Source: a virus
Reading direction: 5' to 3' (one strand)
Length of the DNA stretch: 64,000 nt
Virus genome (UHGV): UHGV-0326727
In this document: positions 61,220 to 62,932 of the stretch, piece by piece
Numbering within the stretch: the stretch's first letter is position 1
Layout: every line of letters starts with the position of its first letter
Notes under the pieces: generated by a model
What the model was told of the DNA's origin: nothing
Databases searched by the model: none
What the model saw: only the letters and a program-made list of their open reading frames with translations
Program-made: the position numbers and the translations under genes

Positions 61220-61293
61220 GCACCTATAGCCCAATTGGTAGAGGCAGCAGACTTAGAATCTGCTCAGTGTGAGTTCGAATCTCTCTAGGTGTA
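61220..61293 (+). tRNA. tRNA-Leu (anticodon TAG) with short variable arm (class I-like)
   Basis: Acceptor gcaccta/taggtgt, anticodon stem gcaga/tctgc perfect with loop ctTAGaa, 5-nt variable loop, discriminator A; CCA encoded. Confidence 0.6.
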
Positions 61294-61303
61294 CCAAATT
61301 AAT

Positions 61304-61376
61304 GCAGGTGTAGCAAAATGGTTATGCGGCTGACTCTTAATCAGTAAGACGATGGGTTCAATTCCCTCCACCTGTA
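61304..61376 (+). tRNA. tRNA-Lys (anticodon CTT)
   Basis: Acceptor gcaggtg/cacctgt, anticodon stem gctga/tcagt with loop ctCTTaa, T-loop TTCAATT; CCA encoded. Confidence 0.7.
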
Positions 61377-61385
61377 CCAAACATT

Positions 61386-61458
61386 GGGGATGTAGTTTAC
61401 ATGGTTAAAACATAAGTTTTGCAAACTTAAGTACAGGGTTCAATTCCCTGCTTCTCCA
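61386..61458 (+). tRNA. tRNA-Ala (anticodon TGC)
   Basis: Acceptor ggggatg/cttctcc with G3-U70 wobble (Ala identity element), anticodon stem taagt/actta with loop ttTGCaa; CCA encoded. Confidence 0.75.
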
Positions 61459-61467
61459 CCAATTAGT

Positions 61468-61539
61468 GCATCCATAGTTTAAACGGGAAAATTACAGTCT
61501 TCCAAACTGAGGTTGAGGGTTCGATTCCCTCTGGATGCT
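61468..61539 (+). tRNA. tRNA-Gly (anticodon TCC)
   Basis: Acceptor gcatcca/tggatgc, anticodon loop ctTCCaa, T-arm gagggTTCGATTccctc; CCA encoded. Confidence 0.75.
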
Positions 61540-61549
61540 CCAAATTAAT

Positions 61550-61622
61550 GCTCCTATCGTATAATTGGCTATTACGGTTGCCTTGTAAGCAACTTATCAG
61601 GGTTCGAATCCTTGTGGGAGCA
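61550..61622 (+). tRNA. tRNA-Thr (anticodon TGT)
   Basis: Acceptor gctccta/tgggagc, anticodon stem gttgc/gcaac perfect with loop ctTGTaa, T-loop TTCGAAT; CCA encoded. Confidence 0.75.
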
Positions 61623-61627
61623 CCAAT

Positions 61628-61716
61628 TCAGAGGTCAAGTGAAAGACCGCTGGTGTCAACTGAAGACCGTAACAAATTCCACGGAGTTGAGTTAGCGGCA
61701 CAACTTCAGACCTCTT
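61628..61716 (+). ncRNA. structured hairpin element between tRNA-Thr and tRNA-Val
   Basis: Closing stem tcagaggtc / gacctctga; interior contains ctgaagaccgt, related to the CAGAAGACC motif. Confidence 0.35.
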
Positions 61717-61720
61717 TCAT

Positions 61721-61792
61721 ACTCGCTTAGTTTATATGGTAAAACATCACCCTTACAAGATGGAGAAAAAGGTTCAAGTCCTTTAGTGAGTA
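61721..61792 (+). tRNA. tRNA-Val (anticodon TAC)
   Basis: Acceptor actcgct/agtgagt, D-stem gttt/aaac, anticodon loop ctTACaa, T-arm aaaggTTCAAGTccttt; CCA encoded. Confidence 0.7.
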
Positions 61793-61796
61793 CCAT

Positions 61797-61871
61797 GTTC
61801 CAGTATCCCAATTGGCAGAGGATGCAAGCTCAAACCTTGTACTAGTGACGGTTCGAATCCGTCTTGGAACA
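61797..61871 (+). tRNA. tRNA-Leu (anticodon CAA) with short variable arm (class I-like)
   Basis: Acceptor gttccag/ttggaac, anticodon stem gcaag/cttgt with loop ctCAAac, T-arm gacggTTCGAATccgtc, discriminator A; CCA encoded. Confidence 0.6.
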
Positions 61872-61879
61872 CCAATTTT

Positions 61880-61952
61880 GCAGGATTAGTTCAAATGGAT
61901 AGAGCAACAGTCTACGAAGCTGTTAATAGGGGTTCGAATCCCTTATCCTGCG
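61880..61952 (+). tRNA. tRNA-Arg (anticodon ACG)
   Basis: Acceptor gcaggat/atcctgc perfect, D-stem gttc/gagc, anticodon stem acagt/gctgt with loop ctACGaa; CCA encoded. Confidence 0.75.
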
Positions 61953-61973
61953 CCAGATAAGTAAGAGGAATTT

Positions 61974-62216
61974 ATGCAAACATTAATCGTCGTTGAACAT
62001 GAAAATTCCAACAGTATTGAGTTTGTAAGGGTTCCCACTATAGATACCCACATTTTCTTGAAAGTCGGATGGGGATGTGACCCAATAAAAGTAGAAAATT
62101 TTATTGGTCATTACTTTGGTGGAAGACAACTTAAAAGCGTCAATTTTGAGACAATGTTACCAGAAAACTCAGAAACAAATAATAATGTTTATCTCCTTAC
62201 GAGGATTAGACAATGA
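61974..62216 (+). CDS. hypothetical small protein inside tRNA cluster
   Basis: 80 aa; ATG with AAGAGGA RBS right after tRNA-Arg. Confidence 0.4.
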   Translation: MQTLIVVEHENSNSIEFVRVPTIDTHIFLKVGWGCDPIKVENFIGHYFGGRQLKSVNFETMLPENSETNNNVYLLTRIRQ

Positions 62217-62770
62217 GATATCTGAAGTATGCTTCATGGATTTTCCTAGCTTTGTTAGACCCATTGGCAGCAACCTTAGCAGTTATCTTAGCACCCTTTG
62301 TAGTCCCATTCTACAGTGAGAAGAAAGGCCATCTGCCTTTTGGATTCAGATGGATGGAGACATATGACAACCCGATTGATGGTGATGAAGGTCATGTCAA
62401 ACGATGGGCTAAGATTAGAAAGATTGGTAAGCTTGGTGTCTATATGCAGAGAGTTGGATGGCTCTGGAGAAACAAAGCTTATAACTTCTCTTACCATGTG
62501 TTAGGAAGAGATGTAAAAGATGTTACTAAGTGGAAAGGCAATATCAATGTAAGTTCTGACCCTGAAGATAATCAGACAGGTTATCTCCTAATGTGGAACA
62601 GTAATGCTTGGGGATTATTCGCTTTTATCCCATCAATTAAAGTCTTTGGTAAACAATTCTACTGGAGAATTTATGTTGGATGGAAACTTAAAAGTGTTGT
62701 TCCAGAAGAAAGAGCATTCTCAAGGGAAAGAGTTATGTTGGCATTCTTTATTCATCCACTAAGAAAGTAA
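62213..62770 (+). CDS. hypothetical membrane protein inside tRNA cluster
   Basis: 185 aa; N-terminal hydrophobic segment WIFLALLDPLAATLAVILAPFVVPF; start overlaps upstream stop (ATGA). Confidence 0.45.
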   Translation: MRYLKYASWIFLALLDPLAATLAVILAPFVVPFYSEKKGHLPFGFRWMETYDNPIDGDEGHVKRWAKIRKIGKLGVYMQRVGWLWRNKAYNFSYHVLGRDVKDVTKWKGNINVSSDPEDNQTGYLLMWNSNAWGLFAFIPSIKVFGKQFYWRIYVGWKLKSVVPEERAFSRERVMLAFFIHPLRK

Positions 62771-62778
62771 AGATTTAA

Positions 62779-62851
62779 AGGGGATTAGTTTACAAGGTTA
62801 AAACCTCGGTCTTTGAAATCGAAGAAGTTGGTTCAATTCCAACATCCCCCG
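62779..62851 (+). tRNA. tRNA-Gln (anticodon TTG)
   Basis: Acceptor aggggat/atccccc (1-72 unpaired), D-stem gttt/aaac, anticodon stem tcggt/atcga with loop ctTTGaa; CCA encoded. Confidence 0.65.
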
Positions 62852-62856
62852 CCAAT

Positions 62857-62932
62857 GCTCCATTACTCCAATTGGCAGAGAGGCCAGACTTAAAATCTGT
62901 GTTATGTATCGGTTCGAATCCGATATGGAGTA
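62857..62932 (+). tRNA. tRNA-Leu (anticodon TAA) with short variable arm (class I-like)
   Basis: Acceptor gctccat/atggagt, anticodon loop ctTAAaa, T-arm atcggTTCGAATccgat, discriminator A; CCA encoded. Confidence 0.55.

Follow-up and report, generated by a model that had tools for sequence, protein, structure and literature searches.

According to the textbook rule, bacterial leucine tRNAs (tRNA-Leu) belong to class II. The tRNA-Leu encoded in the tRNA cluster of phage T4 is class II as well. Class I tRNA-Leu, with a short variable loop, is already known from animal mitochondria, from Streptomyces coelicolor and from a Mycobacterium tRNA array. In this study, we describe three tRNA genes with leucine anticodons (UAG, CAA and UAA) in the virus genome UHGV-0326727, of which a stretch of 64,000 nucleotides (the window) was analysed. 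All three have the short variable loop of class I. Judged by their sequences, they are probably functional class I tRNA-Leu isoacceptors, charged with leucine by the host's leucyl-tRNA synthetase (LeuRS).

The one bacterial type I tRNALeu studied in detail, the tRNALeu(CAA) of S. coelicolor, has a variable loop of 5 nt and coexists with class II tRNA-Leu and a single LeuRS; its U8-A14 is important, and the length of the loop matters, not its sequence (PMC6614811). It carries C48, and its A73 is reported not to be a determinant. The phage genes share the short loop, but they are not chromosomal actinomycete genes, they carry A15-U48 and A73, and they must work with an enterobacterial LeuRS, whereas the S. 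coelicolor enzyme (ScoLeuRS) has been described as adapted via its leucine-specific domain and termed the only prokaryotic LeuRS that charges both types of tRNALeu (PMC6614811). In mobile phage-like tRNA arrays of Mycobacterium, a tRNALeu(TAG) with a short variable loop lies beside class II host copies (PMC6582537); that case consists of a one-sentence remark with no analysis, and its host phylum differs from that of the window. The type I tRNALeu of animal mitochondria likewise has a short variable loop, with A73 and A14 as determinants, but it is organellar, has a dedicated mitochondrial LeuRS and often has a degenerate elbow, and no direct relationship is implied. Engineered arm-less variants of Escherichia coli tRNALeu are LeuRS substrates that depend on A73 and on D-loop/T-loop contacts (PMC9976931). 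These are laboratory deletions of a class II scaffold, whereas the phage tRNAs are natural and their D-stem core is co-adapted. Phage T5 of E. coli encodes a tRNA-Leu(UAG) in a cluster, tightly spaced to other tRNAs as in the window, but this tRNA has 85 nt and is class II. Literature searches on class I tRNA-Leu in phages yielded the Streptomyces study and the Mycobacterium remark alone: none of the papers reached reports that the tRNA-Leu of phages is commonly class I, an absence that is not proof, and none gives a class I core signature or points out what class I implies for a LeuRS of the E. coli type.

The 4.5 kb around the three genes are 94-98% identical to dozens of Felixounavirus genomes, the best match being Escherichia phage ZX4221 (98.4%). 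The matching Felix O1-like myoviruses have Escherichia, Salmonella, Shigella and Citrobacter as hosts. By this similarity, the window is assigned to Felixounavirus (Felix O1-like coliphages). Public Felixounavirus records already label all three genes as tRNA-Leu. These phages are not known to encode a LeuRS, and the window is presumed to lack one. The three genes are as follows.

61220..61296, + strand, class I tRNA-Leu(UAG), 77 nt including the encoded CCA (ARAGORN; Rfam 58.9 bits with alignment)
61797..61874, + strand, class I tRNA-Leu(CAA), 78 nt including CCA (ARAGORN; Rfam 43.6 bits)
62857..62935, + strand, class I tRNA-Leu(UAA), 79 nt including CCA (ARAGORN; Rfam 47.5 bits)

ARAGORN and Rfam agree on cloverleaf and anticodon for all three, with the anticodons that the original prediction, made from the sequence without database searches, had named. 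The matches to Rfam RF00005 are full-length (model positions 1-71 of 71) and exceed its gathering score of 29 bits. The anticodons stand at positions 34-36 of a 7-nt loop (by ARAGORN in all three genes, by the Rfam alignment in Leu(UAG)), just where they had been predicted. The predicted gene starts are correct, and the predicted ends fall short of those of ARAGORN by the encoded CCA. The short class I arm is borne out: counted by standard 44-48 numbering, the variable loops have 5, 6 and 7 nt, where the ARAGORN drawings show 4, 5 and 7 nt because 26:44 is paired in two of the three. Leu(UAG) has the variable loop UCAGU, G1.U72, A9, C12-G23, C13.A22, A15/U48 and A37; Leu(CAA) has ACUAGU and G1-C72; Leu(UAA) has GUUAUGU, G1.U72 and an anticodon loop with A36A37A38. 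The predicted discriminator A73 is found in each of the ARAGORN cloverleaves. Each gene has a 7-bp acceptor stem, an 11-nt D-loop and a 3-bp D-stem with the C13.A22 mismatch. The D-arms (gcccAATTGGTAGAggc, tcccAATTGGCAGAgga and ctccAATTGGCAGAgag) are similar strings rather than the identical one that a shared D-arm would imply, with the Leu-type D-loop AAUUGGYAGA in all three. In the 64 kb, AATTGGYAGAG occurs three times, confined to the Leu genes, against 0.16 occurrences expected, and the full D-loop/anticodon-loop/T-loop pattern occurs three times against 0 expected; the shared D-arm motif is therefore not due to chance.

According to the review by Giege and Eriani (PMC9976931), leucine identity in E. 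coli depends crucially on A73 and cannot do without the A15-U48 Levitt pair, G18G19 and A20a. The contacts G18:U55, G19:C56 and U54:A58 also matter (PMC9976931), and U8-A14 and other core elements have been described as LeuRS determinants (PMC6614811, with PMC9976931). The long arm and the anticodon are not needed, and arm-less variants stay active (PMC9976931). All three window genes contain the D-loop AAUUGGYAGA with G18G19 and A20a, U8/A14, A15-U48, and the T-loop UUCGAAU with U54, U55, C56 and A58. For comparison, the Leu genes of E. coli K-12 (leuQ/P/V, leuZ, leuX, leuW; 85-87 nt) were fetched. Three of these, leuW (UAG), leuX (CAA) and leuZ (UAA), have the anticodons and the D-loop (AAUUGGUAGA or AAUCGGUAGA) of the phage genes. 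The A14/A15/G18G19/A20a elbow, U48, A73 and the 3-bp D-stem with a 13.22 mismatch are common to host and phage, and G1.U72 is found in leuZ as well. In an alignment of the phage genes with leuW, leuX, leuZ and leuQ, A14, A15, G18, G19, the T-loop, A73 and the A-G-A closing the D-loop are invariant, and the phage genes show a gap of 8-10 nt exactly at the host variable stem-loop. The host genes differ by this stem-loop of 13-15 nt and by G9, G12-C23 and R13, where the phage genes (77-79 nt) have A9, C12-G23 and C13.

Elements read by other synthetases were also considered. The Leu genes lack G3:U70 (position 3-70 is A-U or U-A), any called G-1, the discriminators G73, U73 and C73, and a long arm; the determinants for AlaRS, SerRS, HisRS, GlyRS, CysRS and the anticodon-reading synthetases thus appear to be absent. 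Since all LeuRS determinants are present and those of other synthetases are lacking, leucine is, as far as the primary structure tells, the sole identity with a full determinant set. The original prediction had left a choice between unusual class I Leu tRNAs and tRNAs of a different identity. The presence of all published E. coli LeuRS determinants, which are likewise invariant in about 200 independent class I relatives, favours the first option. Compared with those of cellular bacteria such as E. coli, the three tRNAs are indeed unusual, but in phage tRNA clusters tRNAs of this type are common (see below).

Some observations speak against charging by the host enzyme or against intact function. 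In the study of Fan et al. 2019 (PMC6614811), the type I tRNALeu(CAA) of S. coelicolor was not charged by E. coli LeuRS. This enzyme has a leucine-specific domain with a preference for large variable loops and a C-terminal domain in contact with nucleotides 47f-47i (PMC6614811). Because of this failure and these domain preferences, charging of the phage Leu tRNAs by the host LeuRS could be inefficient. The Streptomyces tRNA is an imperfect predictor, since it has C48 and not the U48 of the E. coli identity set; its failure may be due to the missing A15-U48 and not to the missing arm. Moreover, position 37, which in E. coli leuW is G37, the site of m1G37, is A37 in Leu(UAG) (61255-61258 region). 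Mismatches occur in the T-stem of Leu(UAG) (U.U) and in Leu(UAA) (C27.U43), the Rfam scores of Leu(CAA) and Leu(UAA) rank near the bottom of the cluster, and single-sequence folding energies are no better than those of shuffles (z = -0.5 to -1.6). The minimum-energy single-sequence folds recover the cloverleaf in part, as is usual for tRNAs. The "phage-derived tRNALeu" of Nyerges et al. 2023, which is said to come from phage OSYSP, tells nothing about the charging of class I tRNAs, since OSYSP is a T5-like phage (Tequintavirus) and the tRNA-Leu of T5 is class II. No sequence of this "phage-derived tRNALeu" was found in the papers citing Nyerges et al. 2023 or in supplements.

Class I tRNA-Leu genes are widespread in viruses. 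A fixed search pattern (Leu-type D-loop, Leu anticodon loop, T-loop, spacing of a short variable loop) matched at least 120 IMG/VR contigs with a G+C content of 32% to 63%. With wider spacing, the 120 IMG/VR matches listed comprise 48 class I tRNAs (spacer 16-18) and 72 class II tRNAs (spacer 22-30), with no spacer between 18 and 22; this class I share covers tRNAs with a Leu-type D-loop. Among the loci of the matches listed, class I loci contain 190 short and 23 long Leu tRNAs and class II loci 11 short and 96 long ones, so that class is largely a property of the whole cluster. In the listed class I loci, 93 of 94 tRNA-Ser genes are 84 nt or longer, and the tRNA-Tyr genes have 79-93 nt. Short Leu-anticodon tRNAs of the same loci that the pattern missed carry A73 in 49 of 54 cases and a Leu-type D-loop in 37 of 54, compared with 102 of 903 non-Leu tRNAs. 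The discriminators of other isotypes in these clusters are U73 for Gly and Cys, C73 for His, and G73 for Ser, Asp, Asn and Trp. They follow bacterial discriminator rules, and the clusters therefore seem to be built for ordinary bacterial synthetases.

At 95% identity or more, Leu(UAA) is found in 253 phage records, Leu(CAA) in 248, among them Escherichia phage REP5, and Leu(UAG) in 92; of the 264 records that match Leu(UAA), 216 do so at 99% or more. Gap-free class I relatives with 75-91% identity, annotated as tRNA-Leu, occur in phages of many other hosts, including Mycobacterium, Streptomyces, Gordonia, Pseudomonas, Enterobacter, Erwinia, Acinetobacter, Enterococcus, Lactobacillus, Prochlorococcus and Myxococcus. 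In the genome collection, about half of the class I loci among the matches listed are lone tRNA genes, mostly Leu(UAA). The readable ones among these are largely from Actinomycetota (Nocardia, Amycolatopsis, Corynebacterium, Mycolicibacterium, Acidimicrobiia), are apparently chromosomal and native, and have the D-arm gcccAATTGGCAGAggc in common with phage genes. They go beyond the single Streptomyces CAA case of the literature. About one fifth of the listed genome loci lie in arrays with 10-30 tRNAs per 8 kb, in cyanobacteria, Acidobacteriota, Planctomycetota and other taxa. Enterobacteria are not represented among the 80 class I matches listed from the genome collection. A blastn search with Leu(UAG) against 5,426 complete E. 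coli genomes gave no match, which, for a 77-nt query in 28 Gb, excludes near-identical copies only.

The class I sequences have a core of their own. Parsing of the hits in register gave three sets of unique sequences: viral class I (89), genomic class I (107) and viral class II (70). U8, U48 and A73, positions not constrained by the pattern, are present in 100% of all three sets. Viral class II tRNAs have G9, G12-C23 and R13 in 100%, whereas the class I sets have A9 in 80-85%, C12 in 78-87% (C12-G23 in about 80-88%) and C13 in 89-98%. The combination of A9, C12-G23, C13.A22 and a short loop with U48 is taken here to define the major subtype of class I tRNA-Leu. It is present in all three window genes, whose loops of 5-7 nt end in U48. 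Pairing in the class I sequences is maintained by covariation: 93.7% of the cells of all four stems are canonical, compared with about 54% after shuffling of partners, and most stem positions show 3-6 pair types, including the D-stem, which was not filtered. In about 15% of the class I sequences the D-stem has remained class II-like; this suggests that class I arose more than once, with separate and perhaps more recent arm losses.

Among themselves, the three window genes are 69-73% identical; with class I tRNA-Leu from unrelated contigs and genomes they share 80-86% identity. These values point to an old, maintained architecture, in which the three genes are old paralogues and the class I state predates the phage lineage. 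We reject an origin by recent duplication, as each gene is closer to class I genes of unrelated contigs than to the other two. Within the phage lineage, Leu(UAA) is at least 99% identical in 216 records, compared with 80-99% for the 4.5-kb region, and tRNA positions are better conserved than non-tRNA positions in four of five related IMG/VR contigs (e.g. 100% versus 95%). In the fifth, the Felixounavirus-like contig L116, the Leu(UAG) slot (4117-4194 of L116, 61220-61296 of the window) holds an allele that differs at 30 of 77 positions and is also class I. The tRNA-Ala of L116 (4284-4359, window 61386-61461) differs at 18 of 76 positions, and neighbouring tRNAs are identical to those of the window. 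This looks like a cassette-like replacement inside the cluster, a reading that fits the presence of Leu(UAG) at 95% or more in only 92 records versus about 250 for the other two genes.

The Leu genes lie in a tRNA cluster that also encodes class II tRNAs.

58867..63205, + strand, tRNA cluster of 24 genes including the three Leu genes (ARAGORN, Rfam)
59360..59447, + strand, tRNA-Tyr(GUA), class II, 88 nt, long variable arm kept (ARAGORN; fold with extra hairpin)
60875..60964, + strand, tRNA-Ser(UGA), class II, 90 nt, long variable arm kept (ARAGORN; fold with extra hairpin)

All genes of the cluster are on the + strand, with gaps of often 1-8 nt, and the Rfam tRNA model scores above threshold for 22 of the 24 ARAGORN genes. 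The contrast with class II on which the original prediction was based is therefore evident both within the cluster (tRNA-Ser and tRNA-Tyr) and in the host Leu genes of 85-87 nt. Promoter and terminator scans over the cluster gave counts at or below chance.

In E. coli, CTG accounts for about half of the leucine codons and CTA is the rarest. In 62 long open reading frames (ORFs) of the window, with a G+C content of 38.7%, leucine is encoded by TTA (25%), CTT (26%), CTG (16%), TTG (15%), CTA (11%) and CTC (6%). The three anticodons would thus cover Leu codons that the phage overuses compared with the host, as in standard codon compensation. From these data we infer expression, leucylation and the reason for the arm loss as follows. 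The three genes would be transcribed as part of the Felixounavirus tRNA cluster and trimmed by host RNase P and 3' exonucleases, with CCA already encoded. The LeuRS of E. coli or Salmonella would leucylate all three, as an E. coli-type LeuRS would read A73 and the elbow (A14, A15-U48, G18G19, A20a, U54-A58), not the arm or the anticodon. Leu(UAA) would decode TTA and TTG, Leu(CAA) TTG, and Leu(UAG) CTA and other CTN codons. The long arm would be dispensable because LeuRS reads A73 and the D-loop/T-loop elbow, whereas the phage tRNA-Ser and tRNA-Tyr would keep theirs because SerRS and bacterial TyrRS use it. The genes belong to an old and widespread class I set (phages, tRNA arrays, Actinomycetota) with a re-packed core and do not reflect a recent deletion in this phage.

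A further reading, compatible with functional isoacceptors charged by the host, is that the short arm is adaptive. The tRNAs would keep leucine identity and go unseen by a host or phage factor that recognises its targets by the arm or by class II shape. Examples would be a defence nuclease directed at tRNAs, a toxin or phage-driven depletion of host tRNAs; the Leu-tRNA supply of the phage would then survive where that of the host does not. The distribution of class as a cluster-level trait (190/23 versus 11/96 short/long among the matches listed) is consistent with this, and so are the frequency of class I Leu tRNAs in phages and mobile tRNA arrays and the finding that the replaced Leu(UAG) allele of L116 is again class I. 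In addition, phage tRNAs have been reported to escape anticodon nucleases by sequence changes (PMC10264068). We nevertheless consider an adaptive short arm unlikely. The literature searched contained nothing specific on a defence nuclease selective for class II tRNAs or tRNA-Leu, nor a defence system or toxin of enterobacteria selective for class II tRNA-Leu. T5, a phage of the same host species, keeps a class II tRNA-Leu, and the lone, apparently chromosomal class I genes of Actinomycetota require no phage-specific rationale. Neutral loss under LeuRS tolerance would explain the difference between Leu and Ser/Tyr without extra assumptions. In its general form, arm loss would be non-neutral and a widespread phage strategy, making tRNA-Leu orthogonal to an activity on class II tRNAs. 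This is a long shot. If true, it would explain why about 40% of the viral Leu-type tRNAs listed are class I, why whole clusters tend to hold a single class and why class II alone is found in E. coli, the one host tested. As a corollary, an ordinary enterobacterial LeuRS would charge class I tRNA-Leu efficiently, against the published view that ScoLeuRS alone does so.

It is very unlikely that the tRNAs have leucine anticodons but another fate, either charged by another synthetase, with Leu codons being recoded, or uncharged as decoys, primers or regulatory RNAs. The class I shape is atypical for bacterial tRNA-Leu, and E. coli LeuRS failed on one heterologous type I tRNALeu, which would fit such a fate. 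However, the LeuRS identity set is complete and invariant across the class I set, determinants of other synthetases are absent, the isotypes of the clusters obey standard identity rules and the anticodons match the Leu codons overused by the phage. That the genes are decaying pseudo-tRNAs, which lost the arm by deletion and with it their function, is least probable of all: the stem mismatches of Leu(UAG) and Leu(UAA) and the low Rfam scores of Leu(CAA) and Leu(UAA) relative to their neighbours are outweighed by near-perfect conservation in about 250 phage genomes with diverging flanks, strong compensatory covariation in related class I sequences, the encoded CCA with intact T-loops and D-loops, and the pattern of mutual (69-73%) and outside (80-86%) identity that marks an old, maintained architecture.

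Three class I tRNA-Leu genes are maintained by these phages in E. coli and Salmonella, and a large proportion of phage tRNA clusters contains similar genes. This leaves two options: charging of class I tRNA-Leu is routine for ordinary LeuRS enzymes, or genes of such abundance serve another role. The class I set represents a natural series on how a tRNA core is re-packed after loss of the arm. Class I Leu tRNAs would moreover be compact, anticodon-independent LeuRS substrates for codon reassignment. For annotation pipelines that expect a long arm in tRNA-Leu, these genes are a reason for caution.

Concerning the arrangement of the Leu genes in the cluster, Leu(CAA) starts 1 nt downstream of a tRNA-Val (61795-61797), and Leu(UAA) lies between two tRNA-Gln genes with gaps of 2 nt (62854-62857) and 5 nt. 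With gaps of 1-2 nt, RNase P cleavage of the downstream tRNA would nearly complete the 3' end of the upstream tRNA. In the dimeric tRNA precursors of T4, an RNase P cut similarly nearly finishes the upstream 3' end. Three conserved ORFs of unknown function lie inside the cluster: 61974-62216 (+ strand; phrog_14202, 80 aa), 62213-62770 (+ strand; DUF7338/phrog_2143, 185 aa) and 59680-59937 (- strand; phrog_14433, 85 aa). L116 has two extra tRNAs, Ser(gct) and Cys(gca), at 6620-6792, some 750 nt downstream of tRNA-Phe, a place that in the window would fall at or past its end.

Directly upstream of the cluster, an ORF of 471 aa (57286-58701, + strand) matches phrog_850 of PHROG, an "RNA-binding protein" (E = 1e-183), Pfam DUF2828 and DUF7788 and, weakly, VWA_2. 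A sequence search of the PDB with this ORF gave no match. Its architecture recalls Ro60/Rsr proteins (TROVE + vWA), which bind tRNA-like Y RNAs, a resemblance that may point to a link. A tRNA-like element not called by ARAGORN is present at 60781-60855 (+ strand). A perfect acceptor-like stem of 7 bp (tgggacg/cgtccca) precedes tgcca, and a 9-nt loop containing CCA is closed by a stem of 5 bp (aacgg/ccgtt); the sole Rfam match of the element is weak (tRNA-Sec model, 23 bits, E = 0.34). The element may be a tRNA-Trp-like gene, degenerate or unusual, or else a tRNA-like RNA as annotated in T5. Finally, two tRNA genes of the cluster have a CAT anticodon (59120-59196 and 60070-60146, both on the + strand). 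One of them may be an initiator or a lysidine-dependent tRNA-Ile2 and not an elongator tRNA-Met; the annotation of T5 has both fMet and Ile2(CAU).

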